Below, one piece after another: positions 6,927-59,677 of a stretch of DNA of 64,000 nt. The stretch comes from Candidatus Auribacterota bacterium (lineage in GTDB: Bacteria; Auribacterota; Tritonobacteria; UBA1439), in NCBI GenBank assembly GCA_026392035.1, contig JAPLCX010000108.1, forward strand, positions 4,634-68,633, given 5' to 3'. Numbering within the stretch: the stretch's first letter is position 1; each line of letters opens with the position of its first letter. A program made the position numbers and the translations under genes. The notes below the pieces were generated by a model. That model ran no database searches and was not told the DNA's origin. It saw only the letters and a program-made list of their open reading frames with translations.

Positions 6927-6980
6927 ATCCGCCTTGACTTACGCGAATGTAATTGACCTCACCCCTGAGCGCTCAACCCA
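6927..6980. repeat. Repeat family R2, copy b
   Basis: ATCCGCCTTGACTTACGCGAATGTAATTGACCTCACCCCTGAGCGCTCAACCCA, ~85% identical to copy a. Confidence 0.6.
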
Positions 6981-23897: not shown

Positions 23898-23979
23898 CGT
23901 GGAACAAGATAGACACCGAGTTGCGAGAAACGAGAAACTAGAAACGCGTGATTGTTTTCACGTCTGCGTTCATCCTGTT

Positions 23980-32269: not shown

Positions 32270-33290
32270 CGTGGTCTCTAGACGCTTTATGTAATATACA
32301 GCCGATCAACTGGTTATGATGCAAATTTGCACCTTGCAAGATATACGCCATAACTCTTTCTTTTGAAGCTGGTTGCATAAAGCGTCTACAATATCTATAG
32401 ACGTTTTACGTAACTGCCTGCTGGTGAACGAATTGCAGTGCAAATCGATCACACCGTAAAAATGCAGGAATAAATTTCTCCTCTGCTTCGTCTAATGATA
32501 TGGAGAGTGTAAAATGCCCTCATATGCCAGGAGATATCAATTGGAGAGGTCGCTGATTTACCACGCGTTCAACAGGAGCAATATGCGCGTTCCCATTTTC
32601 CACACGGATGATGATTACCTCCATTTTATGAAGCTATTGAAAAAATATAGCGAGAGGTTCTTTTTAAAAATATACCACTGGGTAATTCTCTCAAACCATT
32701 TTCACATTTTATTTCAACTTAAGGATGCGCTGATGGTTCCAAAAGTTATGGCGGGGCTGGATCGCTCGTACACGCACTATCACCACAGAAATTATGGAAG
32801 CTCCGGCTTCCTCTGGCAGGGCAGGTTCAAACTTCAGGCGGTGCAGAAAGAACGTTACTTGATTGCATGTGGCAGGTACATCGAGAGGAATCCGGTGCGC
32901 GCGGGATGCGTTCAAAATGCGTGGGAATATCCATACAGCAGCGCGCGCTTTTACTGCATGGGGCTATCGGACAACATCACAAGCGAGGATCCCGCATATG
33001 AGGGATCCGGACTCGACCGTGCTCAGAGATCGCAGGGTTATCGCAATTTTCTGCAAGACGATGATGCAGCTGAGGAATCGCTGTTTCGCAATAATGAAGC
33101 ACCTCTGGGTGATGAATGGTTTGTGGCACGCTTGCAGAAAATAGCCGGCCGCTATTATCCTCAGCGAAAAGGAAGATTGCGGAGGGAAGATTGTCGCATG
33201 GCGAGATGATCGCATGGTGATACAGTTGAAGAGCGTTATGGAATGAGAGGTGATACCATGACACTGCAACTGGTTTTGCAATATGTCTAG
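32270..33290 (+). mobile_element. IS200/IS605-family-like single-ORF element: hairpin-rich left end, HUH Y1 transposase, hairpin-containing right end
   Basis: Perfect 14-bp inverted repeat CTAGACGCTTTATG / CATAAAGCGTCTAC (32279-32292 / 32376-32389). Further palindromes at 32321-32332, 32385-32403 and 32432-32442. A hairpin at 33264-33280 follows the gene. Confidence 0.55.
32514..33209 (+). CDS. HUH-superfamily Y1 tyrosine transposase (IS200-like / REP-associated RAYT-like), 231 aa
   Basis: HUH motif NHFHILFQL. Catalytic-Tyr region YTHYHHRNYGSSGFLWQGRFKLQAVQ. Conserved ERNPVRAG and WEYPYSS segments are typical of this family. Confidence 0.65.
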   Translation: MPSYARRYQLERSLIYHAFNRSNMRVPIFHTDDDYLHFMKLLKKYSERFFLKIYHWVILSNHFHILFQLKDALMVPKVMAGLDRSYTHYHHRNYGSSGFLWQGRFKLQAVQKERYLIACGRYIERNPVRAGCVQNAWEYPYSSARFYCMGLSDNITSEDPAYEGSGLDRAQRSQGYRNFLQDDDAAEESLFRNNEAPLGDEWFVARLQKIAGRYYPQRKGRLRREDCRMAR

Positions 33291-43237: not shown

Positions 43238-44913
43238 TCAGCGGTGGGACACTCTTCCCGCCGCAGGTATGATCCGCGCTGCGCCACATCCGCGGGCAGG
43301 AGGGATGAGAACGACTTGAGGTTTTCTCGCAGGGGCCCCTCGGCAGACGGCTGCACCGCGTAGAATGAGACGGCATCGTTGCCGCACACCACGTTGTGCG
43401 CGATCTTCCATTGCCCGACCTCCATCCATTCCGGTGGTATCAGGCTGTTTCCCCGCTGCGCAGCCCGGAGGTCATAGAGCGCCGCGATCATGACCCCCTC
43501 TGAGCGCGCCAGGTCCCGCACCCGAGCGCTGGTGTAGCTCCCCCCACGCATTTCCCTCGCGACGGTCATGTTGCCAAGCCCGGCCATGTCAATGCAGCGG
43601 ATGTCGGCCAGGTAATTGATCGCCCCCACGTCGTTTGCGGCGACGGTCGCCCCCTGATAGAAGCGTTGCAGGAACAACCCCATCTGGTACTGCTGCTCAT
43701 AGATATTTGTGGTGGCACGCGGGATTTTCTTCACGGCCTGTGCGCCCCGAGTGCCGAGAGAGAGAGCCGATAAGAGGATGAGAATGGACAGTGCGGTGCG
43801 TGCGGGCGTTGAGAGCTCAGGCGCGACGGGTATCCTCCGCGGGAAGTACTCTGAGAGCGCCCAGGTGATCGCACAGGTGCCGAGAGCAACGAGGTATGCC
43901 TCATACCGGTAGAACCAGCCGGTCCTCGCGAATTGCATATGGAGAAGGGTGGTGCCGATGAAGATGAGGAGCATGATCTGAGACCGTTCCCATATCCCCT
44001 TGTGTGTCCGGATGAGGTATGCCGCCAGCGCCGTTGCGGTCAGGATCAACATGTGGGGCGCCTGGATAAATTGCATCGCGGCTGAGTAGCCGAGAAAATT
44101 GATAACGCCCCGCGCGGAGGCGAGGTGGGGTGATTTCCCTTTTATGAGCGCCGAGTTGGGCAGGAAGAACCAGCCATGATTGATCGATATAATCCCGTAG
44201 ATCGTGACGGGGACGAGCGCTGCCACCCCCATTGCAAGTGCGAGGAGATACCGTCTTCGCAGGATAAAGAGGATGCACACGACGAGCACCAGAAAGAGGC
44301 CCTCGTACCGGATAAGGGGCAGGAACGCGGCTGAGAGAATCAGGTAAAAAACCGAGGGCGAACAGCGGGCATGATCGCTGGAGAGGACCTGTGCCGCAAT
44401 GAATACGAAGATAATGGTGACGAGGATGTGGAGGACATGTTCCTGGCCGCTGAATACCAGCGGAGGAAGCGGCGTCAGAAAAATGATCGCGATCAGGACC
44501 ATGAGTGTGTATGCCGGATGGGGGGACGGCCGCCGCGCGCGCGTGAGCCCGTACACCGCGAGCACCAGAACGGTTGCGGACAGGATATTCAAAATAAAAG
44601 GAATGGCTTCATTGACCCCGGCTATCAGGTAGAGGAACGACAGGATGAGCGTCCAGAACAGCGAAGAAGATGATGAGGTGAATCCATATCTGGTGATCCC
44701 CCAGATCCCGTACCGGGCGAAGTTCTTTGCCATCGCCATGTGGATGTAGGGATCGTCGAGGGCATACACGAGATGCCCCTGGTTCTGCCTGAGGGATAAG
44801 AATGCGAGCACCCCTATGGCGAGCCATAGGATGAGGAGTGCGATGCCCGGCAGCCAGTGTGCGCGCAGAGAAAATCTCATAGGATTCAACCCGTCACTCG
44901 ACCTCAAGCGCAC
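43195..44913 (-). CDS. Polytopic membrane protein, GT-C-like (putative glycosyltransferase), 572 aa
   Basis: ~12 TM helices with an early LDDPYIHMAMAKNF loop, then a C-terminal soluble domain. The last 43 nt overlap the convergent GT39 gene. Confidence 0.45.
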   Translation of the reverse strand: MRLRSSDGLNPMRFSLRAHWLPGIALLILWLAIGVLAFLSLRQNQGHLVYALDDPYIHMAMAKNFARYGIWGITRYGFTSSSSSLFWTLILSFLYLIAGVNEAIPFILNILSATVLVLAVYGLTRARRPSPHPAYTLMVLIAIIFLTPLPPLVFSGQEHVLHILVTIIFVFIAAQVLSSDHARCSPSVFYLILSAAFLPLIRYEGLFLVLVVCILFILRRRYLLALAMGVAALVPVTIYGIISINHGWFFLPNSALIKGKSPHLASARGVINFLGYSAAMQFIQAPHMLILTATALAAYLIRTHKGIWERSQIMLLIFIGTTLLHMQFARTGWFYRYEAYLVALGTCAITWALSEYFPRRIPVAPELSTPARTALSILILLSALSLGTRGAQAVKKIPRATTNIYEQQYQMGLFLQRFYQGATVAANDVGAINYLADIRCIDMAGLGNMTVAREMRGGSYTSARVRDLARSEGVMIAALYDLRAAQRGNSLIPPEWMEVGQWKIAHNVVCGNDAVSFYAVQPSAEGPLRENLKSFSSLLPADVAQRGSYLRREECPTADHRFDSPAGMPSTR

Positions 44914-45238
44914 GGATGTAGATCGCCTGATCGATCGCGCTCACTGCGTCGGCCGAGTTGCACGAGGAGCACCTCAGATCCTCCTCGTGCTCGCTTTCGA
45001 ACTCGGTGCCGCAGTCCGCGCATCGGTAGCGGGCGGGCGATCGGATGAGTTTCAGTTTCGCGCCCTCCATGCAGGACGATTTCGCGGCGATGTCAAAGCA
45101 GGACTGGATGTGATCTTCCGTGAGGCAGCTGTACCTCCCGCACACGACCTCGATCGCCTTCACCTTTGAGAAATGATCTCTCGCGCGCTGGAGGTCTATT
45201 CGCCGGATAATTTCTTGGACGATCGACAGCTCGTGCAT
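44894..45238 (-). CDS. hypA: Hydrogenase nickel-incorporation protein HypA
   Basis: MHELSIVQEII N-terminus. Zinc site CADCG...CSSC. Confidence 0.85.
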   Translation of the reverse strand: MHELSIVQEIIRRIDLQRARDHFSKVKAIEVVCGRYSCLTEDHIQSCFDIAAKSSCMEGAKLKLIRSPARYRCADCGTEFESEHEEDLRCSSCNSADAVSAIDQAIYIRALEVE

Positions 45239-45277
45239 GTGTGACGTGACCCTCCCACGCGATGGTTCGCCGCGACG

Positions 45278-46294
45278 TCAGCAAATCCTCGGGAGCAGCT
45301 CTCCCTCGAGGAGCGGGACAAACCGTTTTGTGCCGATGTTCGTCCGGAGGCTGACGGGGGGGATCTGATCGGCATAGGGCGTCGCATCCACCCTTCCGAT
45401 CACCGCCGCGTCCCTGCCGAGAGGCATCGTTCTCATGGCCTTGAGAATATCGGCGGTTGCGCCCGGGTCGGCGACAATGACCAGTTTCCCCTCACTCGCG
45501 ATATACAGCGGATCCATCCCCAGGAGATCGCAGCAGCTGCGGACCTCCCGTCGTATGGGGAGCTTGTCTTCAAACAGTGTCGCGGTGACCCGCGAAGCCC
45601 GCGCGATCTCGTTGAGCGCGCTGGCGACGCCGCCTCTCGTCGGATCCCTCATCACGTGGAGAAAACCGCTCCAGGCGGATATGCCCTCCACGATCTCACA
45701 GAGGGGAGCGACGTCACTCCGTATCTCCGGCGTGAACCCCAGCCCTTCCCGCGCGTTCAGTATCGCCATGCCATGATCGGCGATCGTACCCGAGATGAGG
45801 ATGTCGTCGCCCGGCCGCGCCCGCGATGAGGAGATGTCCATCCCCTCCATGATCGCCCCGATCCCCGAGGTCGTGATGAAAATGCCATCCGCGTCACCCC
45901 GGCGCACGACCTTGGTATCGCCGGTGACCAGGTTGATGCCGAGGGCGCCAGTCGCCTTCCGCATGGAGCGGGCGATCTTTTTGAGATCCTCTATCAGGAA
46001 TCCCTCTTCAATGATAAATGCCGCGGCAATGGCCAGCGGCCGCGCGCCCTTGGCGGCGAGATCGTTGACGGTCCCGCATATGGACAGTGTGCCGATATCT
46101 CCACCCGGGAAGAAAATCGGTTGTATCGTGTACGAGTCGGTGGTGAATGCGAGGTGCGCGGTGTCAACGGTGAGCGCGGCGGAATCATCGAGGGTGTTCA
46201 GTATCTCATTCCCGTATATCGGGAGGAACACCTCCGACAGCAGTTGTGACGAGTGTGCACCGCCGCCGCCCATGGAGAGTGTGACGGTATCCAT
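45278..46294 (-). CDS. hypE: Hydrogenase maturation carbamoyl dehydratase HypE
   Basis: AIR-synthase-like fold motifs (GGGAHSSQLL, DDSAAL, TTDSY) and C-terminal PRIC with terminal Cys. The ATG lies 1 nt after the hypD TGA, with GGAGG upstream. Confidence 0.85.
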   Translation of the reverse strand: MDTVTLSMGGGGAHSSQLLSEVFLPIYGNEILNTLDDSAALTVDTAHLAFTTDSYTIQPIFFPGGDIGTLSICGTVNDLAAKGARPLAIAAAFIIEEGFLIEDLKKIARSMRKATGALGINLVTGDTKVVRRGDADGIFITTSGIGAIMEGMDISSSRARPGDDILISGTIADHGMAILNAREGLGFTPEIRSDVAPLCEIVEGISAWSGFLHVMRDPTRGGVASALNEIARASRVTATLFEDKLPIRREVRSCCDLLGMDPLYIASEGKLVIVADPGATADILKAMRTMPLGRDAAVIGRVDATPYADQIPPVSLRTNIGTKRFVPLLEGELLPRIC

Positions 46295-46295
46295 C

Positions 46296-47411
46296 TCACC
46301 GCCCTCCATAATAATAGTGCGCAGCGCAGGCGCCCTCGCGTGACACCATGCACGGTCCGACCGGATGCGCGGGCGTGCACGCCGATCTAAAGAGCGCGCA
46401 CTCGGTCGGTGTGCGCTTCCCTGCGAGGACCTCGCCGCAGCTGCAGCCCGCCGGTTCGGATACGGCACCGATCTCGAAATCAATCAGCGCGTCTGCGTCG
46501 AAACGGCTAAATTCGCCCGTGAGCCTTACCCCGCTGTTTCTGATCTCCCCCAGACCCCTCCATGTCGAGTCGCATTCGGTGAATACCGAAGCGATGAGAT
46601 CCTGTGCCCGCTGATTGCCGCGGGGTGATACAAACCGCGCGTACTGGTTTTTAATCGCCGGTTCCCGCCGGCTGATCATGTCCAGCAGGAGCAGGATCCC
46701 CTCCAGCAGGTCAACTGCCTCAAAGCCGGCGATCACGCCGGGGACATGATACCGCTCCGCTATGAAACTGTACGCGCCCTCTCCTATGATGGAGCTCACA
46801 TGGCCGGGCAGAATAAAGCCATCTATGCGGATATCGCCAGAAGACAACAGGGCGTCAACGGCGGGGGGAATCAACTTGAACGCCGTGAGGAGATAGAGGT
46901 TTGTTATCCGGTGTGCCGCGGCCCGTTGCACGACGGAGGCGAACAAGGGGATCGTCGTCTCAAAACCAACCCCAAAGAGGACCACATCCGTGCGTGGCTC
47001 ATTTCTGGCGAACTCCAGGGCATCAAGGGGGCTGTACATGATCCTCACGCGCGCCCCCCGATTCGCTCGCGCCGACTCCAGGGTGTCAGATACCCCGGGA
47101 ACTTTGAGCATATCGCCAAAACAGAATAGGACGGTGTCCTTCCTGCAGGCTAGTCCGATGGCGCTCTCCATCGATTTCAGAGGGGTGACGCACACGGGGC
47201 AGCCCGGCCCCGACGCGAGATGAATGTGCTCCGGCAGCCCCTGCCGTACGCCGGTGGCGAAGAGTGCCATCGTGTGGGTTCCGCAGACTTCCATGAGGGT
47301 CGCTTGGGTTTCGCGGGAGCGGATTTCCCCCAGGAGCCTGCGCGCGATCTCAGGATTTCTAAAATTGTCCAGGAGGCTCGCTGAGCTGTTTGAAATACTC
47401 GATGGTTTCAA
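46296..47411 (-). CDS. hypD: Hydrogenase maturation factor HypD
   Basis: MEVCGTHTMA (CGxH) and GPGCPVC motifs. FeS-cluster Cys motifs near the C-terminus. Confidence 0.85.
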   Translation of the reverse strand: MKPSSISNSSASLLDNFRNPEIARRLLGEIRSRETQATLMEVCGTHTMALFATGVRQGLPEHIHLASGPGCPVCVTPLKSMESAIGLACRKDTVLFCFGDMLKVPGVSDTLESARANRGARVRIMYSPLDALEFARNEPRTDVVLFGVGFETTIPLFASVVQRAAAHRITNLYLLTAFKLIPPAVDALLSSGDIRIDGFILPGHVSSIIGEGAYSFIAERYHVPGVIAGFEAVDLLEGILLLLDMISRREPAIKNQYARFVSPRGNQRAQDLIASVFTECDSTWRGLGEIRNSGVRLTGEFSRFDADALIDFEIGAVSEPAGCSCGEVLAGKRTPTECALFRSACTPAHPVGPCMVSREGACAAHYYYGGR

Positions 47412-47589
47412 GGGCTTCTTCCCTGTTGAGCGTGTTAATCGCGAACCCCGCGTGCACGATCACAAAATCCCCGACCATGGCGTGTTCGATCAGGTCAAGG
47501 GCCACTCGTTTTCTAACCCCACCGAAGTCAACGAGCGCGTGTCCGTCAGCAATCAGTTCTATGATCTCACCGGGGACCGCCACGCACAT
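47359..47589 (-). CDS. hypC: Hydrogenase maturation factor HypC
   Basis: Starts MCVAVPGEI (conserved Cys2). The C-terminal overlap with hypD (~50 nt) suggests hypD may start at a later codon. Confidence 0.8.
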   Translation of the reverse strand: MCVAVPGEIIELIADGHALVDFGGVRKRVALDLIEHAMVGDFVIVHAGFAINTLNREEALETIEYFKQLSEPPGQF

Positions 47590-48243
47590 TTCCATCTCCC
47601 GCTGTAAAAGAAGTACTCTCAACTTCACCATATCACACTCGGGTTTGGCAAGAGAATTGTTGAGGAGGGATCAACAGGATCATGCAGCAGGACGCGCGGG
47701 CGTTGTGGTGTCATTGCGATTCCGGCTCAGCGGGACGAAGCAGTCCGACACCGAGGGCGTCACCCCAAACAGGGTGAGGGATCGCACATAGGTCGCCACT
47801 GCTGCCTGCGGCAGCCTCGCGACGCTTCGCGGGTCGCCTTCGGCCCGCCACACACAGCCGCTGCCGCTTCGGGGGAGGAAGCTCGTTCCACTCCATCGCA
47901 GCTACTGTGTCTTTGGAAACACCACTGCTGTATGCATCACTTCACTCACTACGCAGGTAATGTAGAGGCAATACTTGACATTCTATGAGAATAGGAATTG
48001 CCAATAAACCTTTTTTAATTAGATATGTCAATATTCTTATTTCAGTAGATATATCCTTTCTCATATATAACCACTTAATAGCTATATCTTACTCCTAAAG
48101 AACAAGTAGCGTAATACATCTACCTGTTCCCATCCATGCGCCTTTGCCCGGAGCCTTGACAACTGCCCAAAATTAAGCTAAAATTCGAGTGAGCGAGAGG
48201 GCAGGGATGGAAGGAAGCTCGCTCTCAAAGGAGCGGCAGGACG

Positions 48244-50769
48244 GTGAAGGCGCACAGGTGGTTCCTCCTGATTCATGCGATGAGCGCGGCGGCGCTCTCG
48301 TCGTTCCTTTTTATCTCACCTCTGTCTGCCGCGCCGGACGCTCCTTACGTCGAGGGTGAGATTCTCGTCAAATACAAAAGCTCGACTTCCCATTTGCGCA
48401 TGAGCAGCATCGAGAAGACGGCCGGCCTGGTTACAAAAGAAGAAATCCCCGCGCTGCGCATCAAGCGGGTAAAAATTGAGTCCGGGATGTCCGTCGAGGA
48501 GTGCATTGAAGAATACCACAGGCTCGCCGGCGGCTCGATAGAGTACGCTGAACCCAACTATATCCTGAACGCTGATCTTCTCCCCAACGACCCTGACTTC
48601 AATCAATTGTACGGTTTGCGCAATACCGGACAGAACGGCGGTGTGCAGGGGGCCGATGTTGCCGCCGCCGAAGCGTGGGATACCGCCACGGGCGGCCCCA
48701 TTGTGGTCGCGGTCATCGACACGGGAGTTGACTACACGCATCCAGACCTCGCGGCCAATATGTGGAAAAATGAGGGCGAGATACCGGATAACGGCATTGA
48801 CGACGACGGGAACGGCTATGTTGATGATTACCGCGGCTGGGACTTCTGCAACCATGACAATGACCCCTACGATGATCACTCGCACGGCACGCACTGCGCG
48901 GGCATCATCGCGGCCGTGGGCGACAACGGCATCGGGGGCGTCGGCGTGTGCTGGAAGGCGAAGATCATGCCGTTGAAGTTTATGGGGGCGGGGGGCTCGG
49001 GATCGACGGCCGAAGCCGTGAATGCGATCCTCTACGCGACCAAGATGGGCGCGCGGGTAATGAGCAACTCGTGGGGCGGCGGCGGTTGCTCTCAGGCGCT
49101 CAGGGACGCCATCCAGGTTGCCAACGATGCGGGGGTGATATTCGTGGCGGCGGCGGGAAACTCCGCGAGCGACAACGATCTCACCGCGCACTACCCCTCG
49201 AGCTACGATTGCAAAAATGTCATCGCCGTGGCGGCCACTGATAATTATGATCTCCTCGCGTCATTCTCATGCTACGGGCTCACATCGGTGGACATCGCGG
49301 CGCCGGGGGTCGCGATCCTGAGCACCACCCCCGGCGGGGGCTACGCGTCATACAGCGGGACATCGATGGCCGCTCCTCATGTCGCAGGCGCCGCCGCGCT
49401 CGAGTGGTCGCACACGCCCGCAAAAAGTCACACCCAGATTATTTCAGATATTCTCAGTGGGGCGACGCCACTCTCGGCGCTGGATGGCAAGGTGGTCACC
49501 GGAGGCCGTCTCAATCTTCAGCAGATGCTCAACCCCGAGAACGACACGGTGGCGCCGGCCCCGGTCACAGACCTGAGCGCGGTGGGGACGAGGATGGCGC
49601 GGGTGACACTGAGCTGGACGGCGACCGGAGATGACGGCAACACGGGGAAGGCCAGCGCTTATGACCTGCGTTACTCCCTCGATACGATCACGGACGCGCG
49701 CTGGGACGCGGCCCGCCGCGCCTCCATTGCGGTCAATCCACAGAGCGCGGGTTGCACGGAAGAGGCAACGGTGACCGGACTATCGCCGGGCACCTGTTAC
49801 TATTTTGCCCTCAAGGTGAAGGACAACCGCAGGAACAGCTCGGCCATTTCAAATGTGGCGGCGGCGACAACCTCCTCAGGAACGGTGGTCCTCGATGACA
49901 GCGTCGAGGGCGGCGACAACGGCTGGTCGCCGACGGGCCTCTGGCACCGTACCACGCATAGCGCGTCCAGCGCTGTCAGCTCCTGGTACTATGGGCAGGA
50001 GGGGCTCTGGAGCTATGACACGGGGGTCGCAAACAGTGGCACGCTCACGTCGCGGAAGATAGATCTGAGCGCCTATAACGACGCCCTCCTCACCTTTAAT
50101 CATTTCAGAACTGTGGAGGCGTACCAGGGTTCGTACGATATCTGTGCGGTAGAGGCATCGCGTGACGGAGGGGCCAACTGGGAGCGGCTGATGGAGCGTA
50201 ATTCATCGAGCCCGGCGGTGTCCGGGTGGACGAGCTCCGGCGCGGTGATGCTCACGGGCTATGCCGGAGGGAGCGTGCTCCTCCGTTTCTCGTTTGACAC
50301 GGTGGACGCCACCTCGAACGGTTATGAGGGTTGGTATGTTGACGACATCCGCATCATGGCGGAGGATTACAAAGTAGAGCAACCGGATCTGTACAATCAC
50401 CACGTGGAGCTCACTCTGAACGGAGAGAGCTTCCGGTGCGGCGACAAGCTCTATCTCTCCGCAGTCGTGAAGCGCGGCTGGCTCTCTCCCCATACCGTGT
50501 GCGATGCATACCTCGCCGTATCGCTGCCGAACGGACGCGAGCTCTTCCTCACGCGCACTCACGCGCTGTCCGGAAAAGCGCTCCCCCTTATGAGCAACTT
50601 CGAGGTGAGGGACATGAGGGTTACCATGGGCCCCTTCGTCATCGCCTCCGGTCTCGCGAGCGGCAGCTACTCCGTGCGCGGCGTGCTCACCCCTTCCCAG
50701 AAGCGGGCGGTAAAGGGGACGAGCCTGATGAGCAACCTCTCCCAGGTGAGCTTTACGATCACTCCGTGA
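48244..50769 (+). CDS. Secreted S8-family (subtilisin-like) serine peptidase with I9 propeptide and C-terminal beta-sandwich/FN3-like domains
   Basis: Catalytic triad motifs VAVIDTGVD, HGTHCAGIIAA and GTSMAAPHVAGAAAL. Signal peptide. GTG start preceded by an AAGGAG RBS. Confidence 0.9.
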   Translation: MKAHRWFLLIHAMSAAALSSFLFISPLSAAPDAPYVEGEILVKYKSSTSHLRMSSIEKTAGLVTKEEIPALRIKRVKIESGMSVEECIEEYHRLAGGSIEYAEPNYILNADLLPNDPDFNQLYGLRNTGQNGGVQGADVAAAEAWDTATGGPIVVAVIDTGVDYTHPDLAANMWKNEGEIPDNGIDDDGNGYVDDYRGWDFCNHDNDPYDDHSHGTHCAGIIAAVGDNGIGGVGVCWKAKIMPLKFMGAGGSGSTAEAVNAILYATKMGARVMSNSWGGGGCSQALRDAIQVANDAGVIFVAAAGNSASDNDLTAHYPSSYDCKNVIAVAATDNYDLLASFSCYGLTSVDIAAPGVAILSTTPGGGYASYSGTSMAAPHVAGAAALEWSHTPAKSHTQIISDILSGATPLSALDGKVVTGGRLNLQQMLNPENDTVAPAPVTDLSAVGTRMARVTLSWTATGDDGNTGKASAYDLRYSLDTITDARWDAARRASIAVNPQSAGCTEEATVTGLSPGTCYYFALKVKDNRRNSSAISNVAAATTSSGTVVLDDSVEGGDNGWSPTGLWHRTTHSASSAVSSWYYGQEGLWSYDTGVANSGTLTSRKIDLSAYNDALLTFNHFRTVEAYQGSYDICAVEASRDGGANWERLMERNSSSPAVSGWTSSGAVMLTGYAGGSVLLRFSFDTVDATSNGYEGWYVDDIRIMAEDYKVEQPDLYNHHVELTLNGESFRCGDKLYLSAVVKRGWLSPHTVCDAYLAVSLPNGRELFLTRTHALSGKALPLMSNFEVRDMRVTMGPFVIASGLASGSYSVRGVLTPSQKRAVKGTSLMSNLSQVSFTITP

Positions 50770-50889
50770 CGTGTTCGATCAGGTCAATGGCCGCTCGTTT
50801 TTTAACCCCCTCGAAATCAACGATCGCGTGCGCGTCAGCCGGCAGTTCTATTATCTCACCGGGGATCGCCACGCACATTTCCCTCTCCC
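50770..50889 (-). pseudogene. hypC-like 5' remnant (MCVAIPGEIIELPADAHAIVDFEGVKKRAAIDLIEHVT...) with its upstream leader
   Basis: 50770-50945 is ~85% identical to 47472-47650, which is the hypC start plus leader. The frame runs straight into the antisense of the S8 gene. Confidence 0.6.
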
Positions 50890-51670
50890 GCTGTAAAAAT
50901 ATTTCTCTCAACTTCACCATATCACGCGCAAGTTTTGCAAGAGAATTGTTGACTGTACCGTCCCCGTTTTTGTGAAAGGGACTATTGCTTCATCTCCCAA
51001 TTCAGAAACAGGTCATTCCCGCGGAAGCCTGCCTATGCCGGAGCGGCTTCGCGCAGGCAGGCGGGAATCCAGTCCTGTACAGTAAATTGTGTATTTCAAC
51101 GCTGGATGCCTGCTGGAGTTTACCCCTGCGAGAGCAGGGGCAGACATGACACGATCACGTCTCTGGAACAAAAAGTATATATTCAGTTGACGATATCAGT
51201 ATCGTACTTGATGCCAGCACATTGGGTATTTCAAGCCTGAAATTTCGGGGAAAGTCCTGGGATGGGTTTAGCTTACGGCGTGGAAGGATCAGATTTGCTG
51301 ACGAAGCAGCTTCACACGAAGATCGGAGTGGATGAGAGGCTGACAGGTCGACCGGAGTTGATCAGTCGGAGCGAACGAGCGTTAGCGAGTGAGCGGAGAT
51401 CCCGAGTGGAGCGAGAGATCATTCCCAGATTAACAGAGCGTAGCGTACGACTTATTGTCTGGGGGGTGACCCTGATTATTTCAGAGACTGATGGGAAAAG
51501 GCATCACCGCCGTATCAACTGTCAAGGATAAAGACTTGACCCCAAATGTCTCACGCTCTACTCGATGGTGAGGAAGGTTTCTGCGATCGGCCCGAGCGGA
51601 GCGACCCGCCGCGGAAGTCAAGCAGGCTCGTGTACCCGGAGGCTCCCGCCGTGCTCCTCTCGGGAATCCC

Positions 51671-54600
51671 TCACACCGGCTCCGCGTGCGCCTTTTCCCG
51701 GCGGCCGGAGAGACGGGCCGTGAGCGAGCCGAGCCACCATTCCAGGCGCACCAGGTACCAGAAGACGACCGGCACGAGGATAAACGTGAACACGATCGAC
51801 GCCAGCATCCCCCCGATCATCACCGCGCCCATGGACTTTTTCGCATCCATCACCGAGCCGAGCTGGGGCGCGACGCCGAGGATGATTGCGATCGACGTCA
51901 TGAGGATCGCCCTGAACTTGTCCGAGGCCCCGAGCCAGAGCGCCTCCTTCACCGGCACGCCCTCCCGCATCTTGATGAGCGTGTGGTCCAGGAGGAGGAT
52001 CGCATTGTTCACGACCATGCCGACGAGCATAACGCCGCCCATCAGCGACGCGACGTTGATGGACTGCCCGAAAAAGAACAGGCCCAGGAGCATCCCGGTG
52101 ATCGAGGTGACCACCGTGGTCATGACGGCCAGGGGATACGCAACGAGCGAGTTCATGAGGGCGCAGAGCAGCATGAAGGTCAGGATCACCGCGAGCAGGA
52201 ACGCCTTGCCGAGCTCCTGGTAGGACTCACCCATGTTCTCCGCGTTCCCGACGTACCGGTAGCCGTACCCCTCGGGGAACTGCATCGCCTTGAATCCCCT
52301 GTCCAGGACCCCCCTGACATACCCGAACGCGCTCTTGCCCAGGTATCCGTCGAGGTGGATCACCCGCTTCCTGTCCCTGTGCCAGATGGTCGGGACCGCC
52401 TTGTCGATCTTCAGCGCGCCGAGCTCGTCGATGGGGATGAGTCCCTTCTTCGAAAGGACCGACATGACTTTTATGTCGTCGAAGTCCCGGGCGTATGTGT
52501 CGTTCAGCTCTATGTTGACCTTGTATTCCTCGCCCTTCTCCTTGTACACGTTCGAATCCTCACCGTAGATGGACGCGCGGAGCATGGAACCCGCGTACGC
52601 CGCGGTCACCCCGTATTCGACGAGCTTCTCCTGCCGGGGCTTGAACTGTATCTCGTCCGGGGGCGTCTTGTACGAAAGGAGCACGCTCCTGAAGTACCCG
52701 CTTTCTTCCATGATCTCCCTCATCCTGCCCGAGAGGCGGATCATGGTGTCGTAGTCGGTGCCATACAAATCGATGGCGACATCCCCTATCCCCGCCTCGA
52801 GGCTTACCCCGCGTTCGAAACTGGCCTCCACGTCGGGGATCCGCGCCATGAACCCGGTGAGGTCGCTCATGATGTCGACGTCTTTCCTCCTGCGCTCCTT
52901 CAGGGGCACCAGGTCCAGCGTGATCTGCACGTTCTCGACGCCGTTGGCGCCTATGGTGCTCAAGTACGATTTCTTCTCGGGCAGCGTCTCGAGATGTCCC
53001 TCCACCAACTTTGCGGCTTCCGTGGTCCGCTCGATGGTCGACCCCTGCGGGAGGGACATGCTGATCCTGATCTGGTTCTCATCCCCCTTCGGGACGAAAT
53101 CGCTCTCGAGGTAGGGGACGAGCAGCAGCGAGGCGAAGAAGAGCGCCGTGATCGCGGCAACGGCGGACTTGGGATAGCGGAACGTGATGTCGAACAGATA
53201 CTTGCACTCCCGCTTCAGGAGTTCCATGCCGTCGTCGATCCGCTCCCTGAGCCAGTGCAGCGGGGCGACGATCCGGTGGACGATACCGGCGCCGGCGCCC
53301 GCGCGGCGGCCCGCCCCCGGCCTGAGTATCGCGGCGCACATCATGGGCGTCAGGGCGAATGAGGCGAGCACCGAGAACAAGGTGGCGTAGACCACGGTCA
53401 GGCCGAACGACTTCATGAACAGGCCGACGATCCCGCCCATCATGGCGATCGGCAGGAAGACCACCAGGTTGGTCCCGGTGGCCGCGATGATGGGGACGAC
53501 CACCTCCTTCGTCCCGTCGATCGCCGCCCGGACGGGGTCGCGCGTCCGCTCCAGATGGACCAGCACGTTCTCGATGATGACGATGGCGTTGGAGATCAGG
53601 GTCCCCAGCACGGACGCGATTGCGAGCAGCGTCATGGTGTTGATCGAGAATCCCGAGGCCCACATGGGGAAGACCGTGGAGACGATCGAGGTCGGGATGA
53701 TGACGCAGGCGATGAAGGCGATGTCCCACCTCCCCATGAAGAAAAAGAGGATCGCGGCGGTAAGGATGAGGCCCAGGATGATGCTCGACTGCGCGTCGGT
53801 GGCCTCGTTGATGATGAACGAGGTAGTGTCCGTCGCGATGTCGAGCGTCATCCCGCGGGGCAGCGCCGCCCTGAATTCGCCCATGCGCCGCCTCATCTCA
53901 GTGGCGATCGACACGGCGTTTCCGTCGGACGCCTTGTTGAGGGAGAGCCCCACCACCTCCTTTCCGTTGTACCGCGCCATCGTCTCGATCTTCTTGTAGC
54001 CGTCCTCTATAACCGCGATGTCCTTCAGGCGGAAGCTCGATCCGTCCGAGGAGACGACCTTCATCTCCGCAATTTCGTCCACACTACCGAACTCCCCCGT
54101 GAACCGGACCCCCAGGGAGGTAAAGCCCTTCTCGAGGGCGCCGGCGGGTACGTTCCTGTTCTTCGCCATCATCGCGCTGATCACCTCGCCGATGCTGATG
54201 TAGCGCCGCTTCATCAGCATCGGGTCGAGCCACACGTTGATCTGCCGCTTCCTGCCGCCGTAGACGTCGACCTTCGCGACCCCGGCGATGGAGGAGAACC
54301 TTGTTTTCAGGGTCTTGTCGGCATACTCGTAAAGGGCGCGCACGTCAATCGTGGGGCTCGAGAGCACCAGGTCCATCACCGGCACGACCATCGGGTCGAA
54401 TTTCTCGATCACGGGCTTGTCGACGGCGTCGGGCAGGTCGTTGAGGATCGCGTCGACCTTGTCCTTCACCTCGATGGACTTCACGTTGACGTCCGCCGAC
54501 AGCAGGAACTCGACGGAGACGAACCCGAGGCTCTCGTACGACTTGCTCTTGATCTTCTTGATCTCGGATATCTCGGAGACCGCGTCCTCGATCTTCTTGA

Positions 54601-54784
54601 CGACGAGTGTCTCCACCTCCAGCGGCGTGGCGCCGGGATAGGTCACCGAGACCGTGACGATCGGGTAGTCAACCTTGGGGAACTTCTCCACGAGCATGTT
54701 CGAGTAGCTGTAGACCCCCAGCACGACGAACACCAGCACGAACATCACCGTGGTCACGCGGTGCGTGACGAAGAACTCTATCAT
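51671..54784 (-). CDS. Multidrug-type RND efflux permease (HAE1/AcrB family)
   Basis: Start set at the internal ATG (MIEFFVTHRV) that overlaps the upstream MFP stop as ATGA. 12-TM AcrB-like architecture. Confidence 0.9.
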   Translation of the reverse strand: MIEFFVTHRVTTVMFVLVFVVLGVYSYSNMLVEKFPKVDYPIVTVSVTYPGATPLEVETLVVKKIEDAVSEISEIKKIKSKSYESLGFVSVEFLLSADVNVKSIEVKDKVDAILNDLPDAVDKPVIEKFDPMVVPVMDLVLSSPTIDVRALYEYADKTLKTRFSSIAGVAKVDVYGGRKRQINVWLDPMLMKRRYISIGEVISAMMAKNRNVPAGALEKGFTSLGVRFTGEFGSVDEIAEMKVVSSDGSSFRLKDIAVIEDGYKKIETMARYNGKEVVGLSLNKASDGNAVSIATEMRRRMGEFRAALPRGMTLDIATDTTSFIINEATDAQSSIILGLILTAAILFFFMGRWDIAFIACVIIPTSIVSTVFPMWASGFSINTMTLLAIASVLGTLISNAIVIIENVLVHLERTRDPVRAAIDGTKEVVVPIIAATGTNLVVFLPIAMMGGIVGLFMKSFGLTVVYATLFSVLASFALTPMMCAAILRPGAGRRAGAGAGIVHRIVAPLHWLRERIDDGMELLKRECKYLFDITFRYPKSAVAAITALFFASLLLVPYLESDFVPKGDENQIRISMSLPQGSTIERTTEAAKLVEGHLETLPEKKSYLSTIGANGVENVQITLDLVPLKERRRKDVDIMSDLTGFMARIPDVEASFERGVSLEAGIGDVAIDLYGTDYDTMIRLSGRMREIMEESGYFRSVLLSYKTPPDEIQFKPRQEKLVEYGVTAAYAGSMLRASIYGEDSNVYKEKGEEYKVNIELNDTYARDFDDIKVMSVLSKKGLIPIDELGALKIDKAVPTIWHRDRKRVIHLDGYLGKSAFGYVRGVLDRGFKAMQFPEGYGYRYVGNAENMGESYQELGKAFLLAVILTFMLLCALMNSLVAYPLAVMTTVVTSITGMLLGLFFFGQSINVASLMGGVMLVGMVVNNAILLLDHTLIKMREGVPVKEALWLGASDKFRAILMTSIAIILGVAPQLGSVMDAKKSMGAVMIGGMLASIVFTFILVPVVFWYLVRLEWWLGSLTARLSGRREKAHAEPV

Positions 54785-55500
54785 TGCGCCCCCGCCCCGC
54801 GGTCCGCCTGCGGCGTGGCCGACGTCCCCGTGCGGTTCACCGTATCTCTCTCTTCCAGCACACTCCGGCCCGTGAGCACCAGCGAATCCCCGGACCGCAT
54901 GCCGCCGGAAAGGACCGCACCGTATCCGTTGCGCGACTCGAGCCTGACGCCGGCCTTCATTGCCCTTCCGTCGCATATCTTCCAGACGCTGTACCCGCCG
55001 CCTGAAACATCGAGCACTTCGTTCGGCACCACCAGCGCGCCGGGGAGCGTCCGGGTGCGCGCGTAGACCACGAGCGGCGATTCCGCCGAGGCGGGCGGGT
55101 CGTTGAATTCCACCCCCACCGGGAACATCCCCGTGATGACGTCCAATTCCCGGCCGACCGATACGACCCTCCCGCAGGGGGTTCCGCCGTCCGCGAAGCG
55201 GATCTCCTGCCCCTCCGCGAGTTTTTCCTTGATATCCGCGGTGACGAAACCGTCCGCCGCCCTGCCCGATGCGCAGGTCACCGTGAACTTCGTGTACACC
55301 GGAATATCCTTCGCCCTGACCTCCTCGACCGTCACCGGCTTGCCGCGCCTGTCCCACTCGGAATGGAAACTGACGATCGGGCGGCCGCGGCTGGTGTTCA
55401 CTGCGCCAATCTTCATGCACACGGCGATGATGCCGACGGTGATCATTGCCGCGTAGAATCGCGCCTTACGACTAATTCTTCGTGCCGTTTTTCTTTTCAT
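54781..55500 (-). CDS. Short efflux RND periplasmic adaptor (MFP)
   Basis: Basic N-terminus plus TM anchor (KARFYAAMITVGIIAV). Beta-barrel/lipoyl-like regions. Lies between the OMF and RND genes. Confidence 0.65.
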   Translation of the reverse strand: MKRKTARRISRKARFYAAMITVGIIAVCMKIGAVNTSRGRPIVSFHSEWDRRGKPVTVEEVRAKDIPVYTKFTVTCASGRAADGFVTADIKEKLAEGQEIRFADGGTPCGRVVSVGRELDVITGMFPVGVEFNDPPASAESPLVVYARTRTLPGALVVPNEVLDVSGGGYSVWKICDGRAMKAGVRLESRNGYGAVLSGGMRSGDSLVLTGRSVLEERDTVNRTGTSATPQADRGAGAQ

Positions 55501-56815
55501 CGTAGTGCCCCGCAATCAGCTTCTCCATCCTCGCCAAAGTGGTATTGATGCTGAACAGCGTCATCTCCTTGTTGATCCTCTGGTTCGTGAGGAGGAGTTC
55601 CGCGTCGTTCAGATCGGTCAGCGACGCCTGGCCCGACGCGAACATATCCTGGGTCTGCCTGAACGACTCCTCGGCAAGACCAACCGCCTTGACGTTCGCG
55701 CCGAGGTTCTCGTTGTACTGTCGGTACTCCAAAGAGGCCTTCTTGAGCTCCAACAGGAACTTCTTCTCGAACTGCTTTGTCCTGAGACCCGCGATCTCCC
55801 TGTCGGCGCGCGCCTGCCTGAGTTGCGCTTCCTTCTTGCCCCCCTCCCAGATCGGCACGTCGATCTTGAACCCCGCGAAGGCGTACCGGTCCAGGCCATG
55901 GCCGATCCCGAAGGCGTGGTCGTCCCGGCCGCCGAAATAATCCAAGGTGGTAAAGGCGGATATGGTGGGTAGGAAGGCCGCGTATTTGCTTCTGACCTTC
56001 GCGTCGGCCGCCTCCGCGGTCTTGGCTAAGCCCTTCAAAAACGGCTCGTATTTGTGCATCGCGTCGACAAGCGTGTCGTAGTCATACGCGTCGTACTTCT
56101 CACTGAAATTCTCGACAATCTCTATCGTGCAGGAATAGTCCACGTCGATGAGCTTCTTCAACGTCTCCAGGGCCGCGTCGTACTGGGTCCGCGCCGCGTT
56201 GACCGTGGGCACGCGCACGGCGACCTCCGTGTCCATCTTGAGTATCTCGTAGGTGGAGCTGCGGCCGCCGAACGAGCGCCGATCGAGTAGTTTCTTATTC
56301 TGGATGGCGTTTGCGTACGACTCCTCGGTGATATACAGGGTTTTCCTGGCGAGCAGCCCGCCATAATACGCAAGCTTGGCCGCATAGATGATCTCCTGCC
56401 TGCCCGCCTCGCGGTTGTAGCTGCTGGCCTCGACCGCCTTCCTCGCCGCCTCGACCGCGTACATGACCCTGCCGAACGACCAGATGAGCTGGGAGGCGGT
56501 TACCCCGTACAGGTCGTAGTAGTCGTTCAAGCCCGTCGCGCTCGGGGAGTCGATGGTATAAGCCCAGCCGGTCTGCCCGCTCAAATTGGGAAGCAGGCCT
56601 GCGCGCTCTTCCCTGGAAAAGCCTTTCGCCTTGGCGACTTCGCTGTCTCTGATCTTCAGCTCCTCGCTGGTCTCCACGGCGCGCGCGATGGTCTCGGCGA
56701 GGCCCAGGCGCAGCACGGCGTGCTCCTCCGCGGAGACCGGGGTCACACCGTGAATGGCGTATGCGAGCGCGCCGGCCAGGATCGCGGCGGGGAGCAGCGG
56801 CCCTTTCATTTTCAT
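55472..56815 (-). CDS. TolC-family outer-membrane efflux protein
   Basis: Signal peptide. Duplicated TolC repeat architecture. Confidence 0.8.
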   Translation of the reverse strand: MKMKGPLLPAAILAGALAYAIHGVTPVSAEEHAVLRLGLAETIARAVETSEELKIRDSEVAKAKGFSREERAGLLPNLSGQTGWAYTIDSPSATGLNDYYDLYGVTASQLIWSFGRVMYAVEAARKAVEASSYNREAGRQEIIYAAKLAYYGGLLARKTLYITEESYANAIQNKKLLDRRSFGGRSSTYEILKMDTEVAVRVPTVNAARTQYDAALETLKKLIDVDYSCTIEIVENFSEKYDAYDYDTLVDAMHKYEPFLKGLAKTAEAADAKVRSKYAAFLPTISAFTTLDYFGGRDDHAFGIGHGLDRYAFAGFKIDVPIWEGGKKEAQLRQARADREIAGLRTKQFEKKFLLELKKASLEYRQYNENLGANVKAVGLAEESFRQTQDMFASGQASLTDLNDAELLLTNQRINKEMTLFSINTTLARMEKLIAGHYDEKKNGTKN

Positions 56816-57974: not shown

Positions 57975-58721
57975 TTGACTTTGATAGACGTTATGGATAA
58001 TGTACTTGCTAATCTGAACAGAAAGATTGGAGAAGCGATTAGAACCTATTGGCTCACGCGGGAGGGCCAGACTAAAAGGCAGAAAGAAGCAGGACGAGTG
58101 GATCAGGGGGCTCGAAGCGCCGTAACGGACGGCGCCCAAATGGATGGTTTTATCTCCCTGATTACTGAAATACTTTGCAACGCTGGAATTGATTCTCGGC
58201 ACATATTCAGGAAAACATGCATAGAATTACCCGGCTTTTTCAGGCCCACAAAGGAGTGGGATCTCCTTGTAGTAAGGGATGGGCAATTGATATTGGCTCT
58301 CGAAGCGAAATCTCAAGTAGTCCCCTCGTTTGGGAATAACTTCAACAATCGAACCGAGAAAGCTATGGGGAGCGCTCTGGACTTGTGGACTGCCTTTAGA
58401 GAAGGCGCCTTCAATAAAACGGTTAAGCCATGGTTAGGGTATCTTTTTCTCCTAGAGGATTGTCCTCAATCTAGGCATGCCGTAAAAGTGCGCGAACCAC
58501 ATTTTGAAGTATTCCCCGAATTCAAAAATGCCTCTTATGGCAAGAGATATGAGCTATTCTGCCGCAAGCTGGTACGAGAAAGGCATTATTCTGCTACTGC
58601 CTTCTTAATGGCATCAAGAGCTGGTGGACTCAAAGGAAACTACGAAGAACCGTCAAAAGATTTAACCTTTGAGCTATTTGCCCGTTCGCTGATCGGCCAA
58701 GTAACTGCTTTTGGGAAATAG
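57975..58721 (+). CDS. Putative type II restriction endonuclease (PD-(D/E)xK fold), 248 aa
   Basis: Candidate catalytic core ...EWDLLVV...LILALEAKSQVV (D ... E-A-K, EcoRI-like spacing). Gene sits 8 nt upstream of a DNA MTase in a low-GC island. No family-level match could be made by eye. Confidence 0.45.
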   Translation: MTLIDVMDNVLANLNRKIGEAIRTYWLTREGQTKRQKEAGRVDQGARSAVTDGAQMDGFISLITEILCNAGIDSRHIFRKTCIELPGFFRPTKEWDLLVVRDGQLILALEAKSQVVPSFGNNFNNRTEKAMGSALDLWTAFREGAFNKTVKPWLGYLFLLEDCPQSRHAVKVREPHFEVFPEFKNASYGKRYELFCRKLVRERHYSATAFLMASRAGGLKGNYEEPSKDLTFELFARSLIGQVTAFGK

Positions 58722-58729
58722 GCTTAATC

Positions 58730-59677
58730 ATGATACAAGCCACAAGTCTAGAGAATATAGTTACAACACATCGCCTTATCCAAGGTGATGCCAGAGAAAT
58801 GTCATATATCCCGAACGAATCAATCCATCTTGTGATTACATCACCACCTTACTGGACATTAAAGAGATACAATGAAAATCCAAGACAGTTAGGGCATGTT
58901 TCCGGATACGAACAATTTCTTAATGAGCTACAAAAGGTATGGACCGAGGTTTATAGAGTGCTTGTTCCCGGAAGCAGGCTAGTTTGCGTGATCGGGGACG
59001 TATGCCTTTCCAGAAAGAAGTTTGGGAGGCATGTAGTTGTTCCTCTGCATGCTGATGTTTGCGTGATGTGCAGGAAGATTGGCTTTGACAATCTTAATCC
59101 TATCATCTGGCATAAAATTTCGAACGCTGCTTTTGAAGCGAACGACGGATCAAAATTTTTAGGCAAACCATATGAGCCTAATGCGATTATTAAAAACGAT
59201 ATCGAGTTTATTCTGATGCAAAGGAAGCCGGGGGGCTATAGGAAGCCCACGGAAGAGCAACGCCGGCTAAGCAAAATAGGCAAGAACGAATTCAACGAAT
59301 GGTTCCGTCAGTTCTGCACCTTAACGGGAGCTTCTACAAAAAATCATCCAGCACCTTTCCCTTTAGAGTTAGCTAATCGTTTGGTGCGGATGTTTTCATT
59401 TTGGGGGGATACGGTCCTAGATCCTTTCTGTGGGAGCGGTACTACAATGCTGGCTGCCATGAGGTGTCACCGCAATAGCATAGGGGTTGAAATAGATAGA
59501 GAGTATTGCCGTATGGCCGCGCAGCGATTGATTAAGGAAAATCAGGATTTTTTCTCTAAAACCCGTTTGGAGTTCAAAAAGCAGATTAATAGTAAAGACC
59601 AGGGCTTGATTCTCCATGAGGATAAAGCTTTATATGTGGCGCACAAGAAAAAACAAAAAATGAAAGCCGCATCATAA
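58730..59677 (+). CDS. Beta-class amino-DNA methyltransferase (motif IV SPPY before motif I DPFCGSGTT); likely N4-cytosine (or N6-adenine)
   Basis: VITSPPYW (motif IV) at aa ~38 and VLDPFCGSGTT (motif I) at aa ~263. This is the ParB/beta-group order typical of type II N4C/N6A MTases. Confidence 0.85.
   Translation: MIQATSLENIVTTHRLIQGDAREMSYIPNESIHLVITSPPYWTLKRYNENPRQLGHVSGYEQFLNELQKVWTEVYRVLVPGSRLVCVIGDVCLSRKKFGRHVVVPLHADVCVMCRKIGFDNLNPIIWHKISNAAFEANDGSKFLGKPYEPNAIIKNDIEFILMQRKPGGYRKPTEEQRRLSKIGKNEFNEWFRQFCTLTGASTKNHPAPFPLELANRLVRMFSFWGDTVLDPFCGSGTTMLAAMRCHRNSIGVEIDREYCRMAAQRLIKENQDFFSKTRLEFKKQINSKDQGLILHEDKALYVAHKKKQKMKAAS

Follow-up and report, generated by a model that had tools for sequence, protein, structure and literature searches.

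Why is a secreted subtilisin-like peptidase gene bracketed by two copies of the start of a hydrogenase maturation gene? The question arises from the window, the whole stretch of 64,000 nucleotides that was analysed, from a Candidatus Auribacterota bacterium (contig JAPLCX010000108.1 of assembly GCA_026392035.1). It carries a short hyp gene cluster, a divergent S8 peptidase gene and, just behind that gene, a second copy of the 5′ end of hypC (Table 1). The intact end is called copy A here and the second one copy B.

Table 1. Features of the hyp–S8 locus, in positions of the window.
Feature	Position	Strand	Description
hypA	44894..45238	-	Pfam HypA, 87 bits
hypE	45278..46294	-	Pfam AIRS and AIRS_C; called as 338 aa on L094
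hypD	46296..47411	-	Pfam HypD, 445 bits
Intact hypC	47359..47589	-	76 aa, starts MCVAVPGE; also called as 76 aa on L094
Repeat copy A	47475..47663	-	Leader 47590-47663 and hypC codons 1-38 at 47475-47589
GC-rich spacer segment N′	47664..47880		67% GC; window and L096 only
AT-rich region upstream of S8	47881..48155		39% GC, core 33%
S8 promoter-like site	48156..48184	+	TTGACA-17-TAAAAT, 11/12; also in L001, L097, L105 and L106
S8 subtilase	48244..50769	+	841 aa; Pfam Peptidase_S8 211 bits (cut-off 21.8), Fervidolysin_NPro-like 55 bits
Copy B ORF	50878-50759	-	39 codons, open: MCVAIPGEIIELPADAHAIVDFEGVKKRAAIDLIEHVTE, then stop
Junction J1	50764..50770		Fusion of the S8 stop codon with antisense hypC codon 38
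Repeat copy B	50764..50952	-	Leader copy 50879-50952 and probable hypC′ pseudogene fragment
Segment U	50953..51670		Non-coding, between copy B and an RND efflux operon; common to L096 up to 51548
REP-like palindrome in segment U	51027-51062		
Multicopy module in segment U	51365-51558		

The alignment of the two copies showed ungapped direct repeats of 189 nt, with 163 identical positions (86.2%). Each copy consists of 74 nt of hypC leader and hypC codons 1–38. A preliminary description of this DNA had reported direct repeats of the hypC 5′ end at ~85% identity, and this was borne out; it had put the leader part at 60 nt, which is too short. It had also noted that the second copy stays in frame and then runs into the antisense of S8, and indeed the copy B ORF and the final 11 nt of the S8 gene overlap, and the ORF ends inside the S8 antisense. 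The binomial probability of at least 163 matches in 189 at p = 0.30 is about 4e-58. The leader part (64/74) and the coding part (99/115) are at the same level of identity, and the coding differences are distributed 4/7/5 over the codon positions. The longest identical run between the copies is 21 nt. Outside the repeat, 12/60 and 13/60 positions match (60 nt per side), which is chance level and makes the borders sharp. Of the direct repeats in the surrounding 12 kb, the next in rank reach 37 nt at most, with 62–70% identity.

The intact hypC matches the Pfam family HupF_HypC (PF01455) over the full profile (1-65/65) with 86.9 bits against a cut-off of 28.5. HypC proteins begin with Met-Cys, and the Cys, which becomes residue 1, is required there. 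The intact hypC begins with Met-Cys and is followed by hypD, hypE and hypA, in agreement with the family in both N-terminus and operon place. An N-terminally extended hypC (MVKLRV...) was rejected because its frame is broken in L097 and the family needs Cys as residue 1. No Pfam match to hypB, hypF or hydrogenase subunits was found in ORFs of at least 200 aa in the window or in smaller ORFs within 43–56 kb. The earlier statement that hypC, hypD, hypE and hypA are the only hydrogenase genes here holds for all ORFs of 200 aa or more. Copy B affects neither the hypCDEA operon nor the S8 gene, both of which are intact.

The S8 protein has a signal-peptide-like N-terminus, a fervidolysin-type prodomain, an S8 catalytic domain, and fn3-like and MAM-like C-terminal domains. 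Its translation contains VIDTGVD, HGTHCAG and GTSMAAPHVAG, the Asp, His and Ser motifs, which together with the profile match place it in peptidase family S8. Fervidolysin-like secreted S8 subtilases have the same prodomain, Asp/His/Ser catalytic domain and C-terminal beta-rich domains, and no notable difference from them was found. Known hydrogenase maturation endopeptidases belong to another family than S8. A role of the S8 protein as such an endopeptidase was rejected in view of its signal peptide, prodomain and extracellular-type domains. The 580-nt spacer between S8 and hypC had been described as an AT-rich promoter region of ~600 bp. Only its S8-proximal part is AT-rich, with a homologue in L105 and partial homology in L097, L106 and L001; segment N′ is GC-rich and over 37 nt matches a palindromic repeat element of L106. 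The source of N′ was not traced, and tblastx gave one weak, uninformative match at an unrelated locus (L012).

Copy B is present in the window, in the Logan contigs L094 and L095, and in the closest relative L096 (HypD 95%). It is absent after S8 in L109 (S8 DNA 92% identical), L105 (90%) and L097/L106 (85%), which have a common alternative flank there, GGGGCAGACGCC... It is also absent in L098, L001 and L107, in which a DUF3047 gene and a FAD-binding protein gene follow S8. A genome scan with S8 gave one close relative, L001, whose contig ends 847 nt upstream of S8 and is uninformative on hypC. A metagenome scan with HypD gave 80 loci, all at most 52% identical, which show the generic hypC-hypD-hypE order only.

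At six coding sites, A and B of the window and L096 have a derived base in common, compared with L097, L098 and L104; one coding site favours an earlier origin of copy B, and none favours the third grouping. These sites place copy B inside the window/L096 hypC lineage. Over the 38 codons, and with wide errors, dS between A and B was 0.17, whereas hypC dS was 0.40 between the window and L097 and 1.26 between the window and L098. The value of 0.17 falls between the S8 dS of window-L096 (0.14) and that of window-L105 (0.23). Judged from these distances, copy B is younger than the adjacency of S8 and hypC. The window-L096 identity is a mosaic (84–100% per 150 nt), so recombination blurs the dating of copy B. 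The dN/dS was 0.59–0.90 for A-B and 0.67 for B-B, compared with 0.13–0.20 for intact hypC orthologues (38 codons, wide errors). Over these 38 codons, purifying selection on copy B was not comparable to that on the orthologues; copy B evolves almost neutrally, under relaxed constraint.

The junction J1 shows a microhomology of 5 nt, which reads CCATG in L096, L097, L105 and L106 and CCGTG in the window. The ancestral S8 end reads ...TCCATGA, the hypC antisense reads ...ACCATGGCGTG, and copy B in L096 reads ...CCATGACGTG. The S8 end ...TCCATGA is thus joined to the hypC antisense ...ACCATGG|CGTG, an end-to-start joint at a short homology, as tandem duplication requires. The S8 C-terminus (SFTITP, then stop) is the same as in L097 and L105. 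The microhomology is displaced by 1 nt from the inferred crossover, except if T stood at variable column 191 (alignment A2) in the ancestral hypC. Microhomologies of 4–15 bp have been documented at tandem-duplication junctions in E. coli (PMC1428787).

The leader boundary at 47663/47664 is demonstrably an insertion hotspot: L096 has, at precisely this point, a MITE of 133 nt whose target duplication measures 7 bp (TCCCTCC), and homology to L097 also stops there, abutted by the end of a repeat element. Synteny breaks repeatedly at the S8 3′ end, in a genome that is rich in repeats and related to Candidatus Auribacterota. Short repeat elements aside, no homologue of segment U was found outside L096 and the identical Logan contigs, and its original location was not found in the relatives. 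A small ORF in segment U (51262-51531) was rejected because of an in-frame stop in L096. Rfam searches of the whole window at gathering thresholds and of 47400–51750 at E up to 1 gave no match, and ARAGORN found no tRNA as a candidate integration-site marker.

Copy B is probably a young, decaying hypC pseudogene fragment that a duplication or rearrangement, mediated by microhomology, left at the S8 3′ end. S8 already stood divergently beside hypC in the window/L096 lineage when copy B arose. The number and order of the steps are inferred: an illegitimate, microhomology-mediated event would have linked the stop codon of S8 with codon 38 of hypC. The most likely route, to which we give a little less than an even chance within this explanation, would be a tandem duplication, between two CCATG motifs, of a 3.29-kb unit (hypC 5′ end, spacer and S8). 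The remainder of the second unit would then have been lost, and segment U gained, through a later deletion or rearrangement. In another route, rated equally compatible, one rearrangement of the S8 3′ flank would have occurred, in which template switching copied 189 nt of the nearby hypC into the junction. Of a second unit only 189 nt exist, and none of the retrieved loci is an intermediate with two S8 copies.

The junction resembles the microhomology junctions of tandem duplication or template switching known from E. coli lac amplification (PMC1428787), in that a distal end, the S8 stop, is joined to a proximal start, hypC codon 38. The homology is likewise short and imperfect (here CCATG), and the unit measures a few kb. 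Unlike in lac amplification, only 189 nt of the presumed second unit is left, with segment U in place of the remainder. Transient lac amplification also differs in age, as the event here is old (14% divergence) and fixed in the lineage.

It is unlikely that copy B has been retained because it is useful, whether as a 3′ UTR of the S8 mRNA antisense to the hypC RBS region, as a second hyp promoter or leader antisense into S8, or as a 39-residue peptide. Its ORF is open in the window and L096 alike, and the copies share identical runs of up to 21 nt. The terminator scan found no terminator-like site between the S8 stop and copy B, so S8 transcripts probably extend into it. Against usefulness stand the near-neutral dN/dS, the absence of copy B from the equally close relatives L109 and L105, and the changes in L096, where the surroundings of the RBS and start codon are among the most changed parts of copy B. 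The sigma-70 scan found no promoter in the hyp direction (minus strand) in the leader of either copy. A functional HypC has a complete OB-fold domain of ~65–90 residues, whereas the 39-codon ORF of copy B matches the HupF_HypC profile over positions 1-36/65; to our knowledge, the HypC OB fold cannot form from thirty-eight residues. Nothing indicates present activity of copy B, which appears to be a non-functional fragment.

A specific form of such a role is very unlikely. A 3′ tail of the S8 mRNA, 189 nt long and antisense to the leader, RBS and first 38 codons of hypC, would damp translation of the hypCDEA mRNA in trans, or a promoter in the duplicated leader would fire antisense into S8. The putative tail is 86% complementary to the hypC 5′ region, with perfect runs of up to 21 nt.

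The preliminary description suggested that the S8 gene had been dropped into the hyp locus. That the hypC 5′ copies are the duplication left by such an insertion, either a long target duplication or the product of Campbell-type integration of a circle with S8 and a hypC 5′ segment on it, is quite unlikely. The geometry would fit, as two direct repeats around a segment are what single-crossover integration yields, and a circle could have closed at J1. However, L097 (HypD 81–83%) and L098 (HypD 75–76%) already have S8 divergently beside hypC, as in L096, and no hypC-like piece was found in their available sequence after S8. Relatives of this kind had been named in the preliminary description itself as contrary to an insertion. 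L105 and L109 also have S8 without copy B, and the dS between A and B is far below the hypC dS values of L097 and L098, which mark the depth of the adjacency. The composition of S8 is native: its GC (0.615), GC3 (0.77) and codon-usage distance (0.108) are similar to those of hypD and other resident genes. Foreign origin, for which a GC-skew and codon-usage check had been proposed, is contradicted by these values and by the parallel drop of S8 and HypD identities across relatives. Neither an integrase or transposase nor terminal repeats were found at the ends of the 3.1-kb unit, and no mobility gene lies between the repeats. A variant with re-integration requires a recipient lineage that lost S8, and none was seen.

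As after Campbell-type integration, recombination between A and B could in principle loop out S8 and restore one intact hypC. In contrast to such integration, S8 was already in place in relatives without copy B, plasmid and phage functions are lacking, and A and B have diverged too far for RecA to recombine them efficiently (longest identical run 21 nt). Transposon target-site duplications also bracket a DNA segment with direct repeats, but 189 nt is far above known lengths, and neither a transposase nor terminal inverted repeats were found. The MITE of L096 is a true example of target-site duplication.

One part of the insertion idea stands, at an older level. The more distant relatives L100, L102 and L103 have a hypF-C-terminal gene, not S8, directly upstream of hypC. 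In L107, an Aureabacteria MAG, the S8 orthologue has glycosyltransferase genes on one side and DUF3047 on the other, and the part of the contig that was examined contains no hyp genes; S8 orthologues in Candidatus Aureabacteria MAGs are 61–62% identical. Therefore, an older rearrangement did bring S8 and hyp together, with S8 taking the former place of hypF. The A/B repeats are not its footprint.

It is highly improbable that copy B is what remains of an ancient second hypC paralogue, comparable to hypC/hybG in E. coli, truncated when S8 or its flank moved in; two ancestral hypC paralogues had been suggested earlier. Genomes with several hydrogenases frequently have two HypC-type chaperones. 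As in the HypC/HupF chaperones, copy A encodes a typical full-length HypC in a hypCDEA operon, and copy B matches HupF_HypC and keeps the N-terminal MC(V/L)A(I/V)PG motif. Unlike a paralogue, copy B ends after 38 family residues, covers half of the Pfam profile, carries the leader of the resident gene and is near-neutral. The 74-nt non-coding leader was duplicated at the identity of the coding part, the six derived sites are common to copy B and the resident hypC, and dS is 0.17. Two adjacent hypC genes were found in none of the 80 distant hypD loci and in none of the closer loci.

An assembly artefact joining two loci at the repeat can practically be discounted: L094 and L095 both stop ~285 nt past S8, at a REP-like element, but these contigs come from two different sequencing runs, have identical protein across the locus and show the gene order of the window, as does the ~93% identical JGI contig L096, which spans both copies, and assemblers would not collapse copies that are only 86% identical with a longest run of 21 nt.

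The locus itself is ordinary and carries little weight for biology at large. It offers a clean, datable natural case of a microhomology junction that left part of a gene behind as a scar; the lineage, of the PVC group and related to Candidatus Auribacterota, has been little studied. It also warns that direct repeats flanking a gene do not alone prove insertion; here, comparative loci reversed that inference. In this genome, with its many small repeat elements, breaks recur at the S8 3′ end and at the hypC leader boundary at -74. If the putative antisense tail were real, it would inversely couple the expression of a secreted protease to hydrogenase maturation, and a regulator would have been born of a duplication scar.

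The hypC 5′ region is present twice, as copy A at intact hypC (leader plus codons 1–38) and as copy B after the secreted S8 subtilase gene; the two aligned over 189 nt without gaps and were identical at 163 positions (leader 64/74; coding part 99/115). Similarity in the regions flanking both copies was at chance level, and the direct repeat around S8 noted in the preliminary description is real. The open reading frame of copy B has 39 codons, starts with MCVAIPGE and ends within the S8 antisense. Logan contigs from two separate sequencing runs showed the order A–S8–B as well, and so did a JGI contig of 93% identity (L096, the closest relative), which rules out an assembly artefact.

The N-terminus of the S8 product resembles a signal peptide and is followed by a prodomain of the fervidolysin type and the catalytic domain; its C-terminal domains are fn3-like and MAM-like. 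The S8–hypC spacer, at first described as very AT-rich, is AT-rich at 47881–48155 (39% GC) but not at 47664–47880 (67% GC). As had been noted, no hydrogenase subunit, HypB or HypF was found among the window ORFs of at least 200 aa.

Features of the hyp–S8 region and the RND efflux operons (window positions)
Feature	Position	Strand	Basis or remark
hypC	47359–47589	minus	strong Pfam match
hypD, hypE, hypA	after hypC	minus	strong Pfam matches
Copy A	47475–47663	minus	ungapped alignment with copy B
Promoter TTGACA-17-TAAAAT	48156–48184		near-consensus, upstream of S8
S8 subtilase, 841 aa	48244–50769	plus	divergent from hypC; translation and Pfam
Copy B (second hypC 5′ region)	50764–50952	minus	directly after S8 stop codon
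RND efflux operon	51671–56815		outer-membrane factor, 244-aa protein at membrane-fusion position, AcrB-like pump
Second RND operon	19680–25389		

Relatives were ranked from a HypD search, which gave a graded series, and their contigs were then retrieved; further contigs were anchored on S8. L096 (HypD 95%), which carried both copies, ran collinear to the window between 51548 and a point past hypA. In L097 (HypD 81–83%) and L098 (HypD 75–76%), S8 lies divergently beside hypC without copy B, so the proposal that an S8 insertion left the hypC repeats as its scar is wrong. The 253 nt downstream of the S8 stop codon in L097 read GGGGCAGACGCC..., and a flank of this type, without copy B, immediately follows the S8 stop codon in the S8-anchored contigs L106 (S8 83%), L105 (S8 87% protein, 90% DNA) and L109 (92% DNA, compared over the C-terminal half of S8 only). 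S8 is followed by a DUF3047 gene and a FAD-binding protein gene in L098 and L001. The same order follows glycosyltransferase genes in L107 (a Candidatus Aureabacteria MAG, S8 62%), with no hyp genes within the contig stretch examined. The hyp loci of L100, L102 and L103 (HypD 66–70%) have the order hypF-C-terminal gene, hypC, hypD, hypE, and the latter two additionally carry hypA and a cobW-type hypB. The gene directly upstream of hypC in these three loci (L100 7441–8568; L102 8639–9787; L103 2208–3356) encodes approximately 375–382 aa with only the HypF C-terminal Pfam families listed (HypF_C, HypF_C_2), and could be a short HypF form without the usual N-terminal domains.

These gene orders indicate a history in three layers. 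The genes hypF–hypC–hypD–hypE formed a single original locus, with S8–DUF3047 located elsewhere; S8 was then placed upstream of hypC in the ancestor of the clade including L098. Much later, and only in the window/L096 lineage, the S8 3′ flank was swapped for copy B and segment U (non-coding 50953–51670, between copy B and the RND operon). The outgroups, which carry a hypF-like gene upstream of hypC, support the older event in which S8 displaced such a gene, and with it the view that S8 separates hypCDEA from a former upstream neighbour. The preliminary description was right in its observation, and in its interpretation on this displacement only. The composition and codon-usage check gave no sign of a foreign origin of S8: its values (GC 0.615, GC3 0.77, codon-usage distance 0.108) are like those of hypD and most resident genes, and its identity to relatives declines in parallel with HypD identity.

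The 189-nt segment was aligned among the window, L096, L097, L099, L098 and L104. At six coding sites, copies A and B of both genomes have a derived base in common against L097, L098 and L104; otherwise one site supported an older origin and none a third grouping. Several leader states are common to copy B and L097 and were later altered in copy A. The shared derived sites and retained leader states indicate that copy B is a duplicate of its own lineage's hypC, made after the split from L097. The dS between A and B was 0.17, and the hypC dS of the window was 0.40 to L097 and 1.26 to L098; the S8 dS from the window was 0.14 for L096, 0.14 for L109, 0.23 for L105, 0.40 for L097 and 0.95 for L098. 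These synonymous distances place the duplication close to the base of the group formed by the window and L096. Its age (dS, derived sites) excludes both an ancient hypC paralogue as the source of copy B and a duplication arising at the first arrival of S8; the suggested former second hypC paralogue did not exist, copy B being young and from resident hypC.

The ancestral-type S8 end (L097, L105, L106) reads ...ATCACTCCATGA and then GGGGCA, the hypC antisense strand at the junction reads ...GACCATGGCGTGTTCG, and the copy B junction is ...AATCCATGACGTGTTCG in L096 and ...ACTCCGTGACGTGTTCG in the window. From this comparison, the S8 stop codon is fused to hypC codon 38 at a common CCATG. The last S8 codons (SFTITP-stop) are unaltered, and the crossover lies 1 nt away from the microhomology, unless ancestral hypC had T at a variable position. 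Junctions of this kind characteristically arise by RecA-independent tandem duplication or by template switching (PMC1428787). Tandem duplication of a 3.29-kb unit between two CCATG motifs would give exactly the observed junction; if a deletion or rearrangement then reached the leader's upstream edge, no more than 189 nt of the second copy of the unit would remain. A rearrangement in a single step that included a templated filler of 189 nt fits equally well. The origin of segment U was sought among the relatives' loci and was not found.

The leader edge (47663/47664) is demonstrably a hotspot, because a MITE in L096 lies there and the window–L097 homology ends there. The MITE-like insertion (133 nt, L096 9609–9741) sits exactly at this edge. 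Its inverted ends, GTAATGCCTCAG / CTGAGGGGTTAC, are imperfect, its target duplication (TCCCTCC) is 7 bp long, and its palindromic core, CTGTAGGGG...CCCCTACAG, is found again in L106, L097, L030, L024 and L015. The window–L097 homology ends at most 2 nt from the edge, adjoining a repeat-element end.

Other repeats were also observed. A REP-like palindrome (GCCTGCC...GGCAGGC, 51027–51062), at which both Logan contigs break, has further copies in L001 and L098, where the surroundings are unrelated. A 231-aa IS200-like Y1 transposase encoded in the window (32514–33209) may be a REP-associated tyrosine transposase. Non-coding modules in multiple copies, some of them with 53-nt units that carry TTGAC motifs, lie at 51365–51558, 6701–7009 and 7413–7504 in the window and at 1353–1907, 4199–4815 and 5531–5746 in L096. 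Window–L096 collinearity stops at one of them (51548), and they bracket L096 accessory cassettes (ECF sigma factor gene with zf-HC2/Metal_resist; ORF6N; DUF6788 with nucleotidyltransferase).

The A–B differences fall 4/7/5 over codon positions 1/2/3. Comparing A with B gave a dN/dS of 0.59–0.90, and comparing the two B copies with each other gave 0.67; the range among intact hypC orthologues was 0.13–0.20. The surroundings of the ribosome-binding site and start codon are among the most altered parts of L096 copy B, and the 38-residue piece spans just half of the family profile. Because of the near-neutral dN/dS, the altered start region and the half-profile length, we conclude that copy B is most probably a pseudogene fragment whose open frame survived by chance. 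Of the non-trivial readings just one is left, in which the 3′ tail of S8, lying antisense to the start region of hypC, would have regulatory consequences; against it speak the almost neutral evolution of copy B and the lack of this copy in relatives that are just as close.

Across 44600–51600, identity to L096 is mosaic, with 84–90% patches (such as 48239–48538, 50489–50938 and 47030–47179) alternating with 97–100% stretches, a pattern pointing to frequent exchange by homologous recombination between related strains. The non-coding 51089–51388 is 97–98% identical to L096 with a strongly positive GC skew (0.24); it had no Rfam match, and the small ORF there is not conserved. The RND operon next to segment U differs from its neighbours (GC3 0.82–0.92, codon-usage distance 0.16–0.23), is missing from the corresponding position in L096, and is possibly a later acquisition; its 244-aa protein had no Pfam match. 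Low-GC (0.40–0.48) defence-type genes at 1452–6605 and 57975–59677 (fused type I-like methylase and specificity protein, SIR2_2-domain protein, XhoI-family restriction enzyme and methylase) are likely horizontally acquired islands.

Overall, the hypC repeats are what is left of a microhomology-mediated duplication that was recent and local and took place at a recurrent breakpoint, and the locus is nothing unusual in kind.
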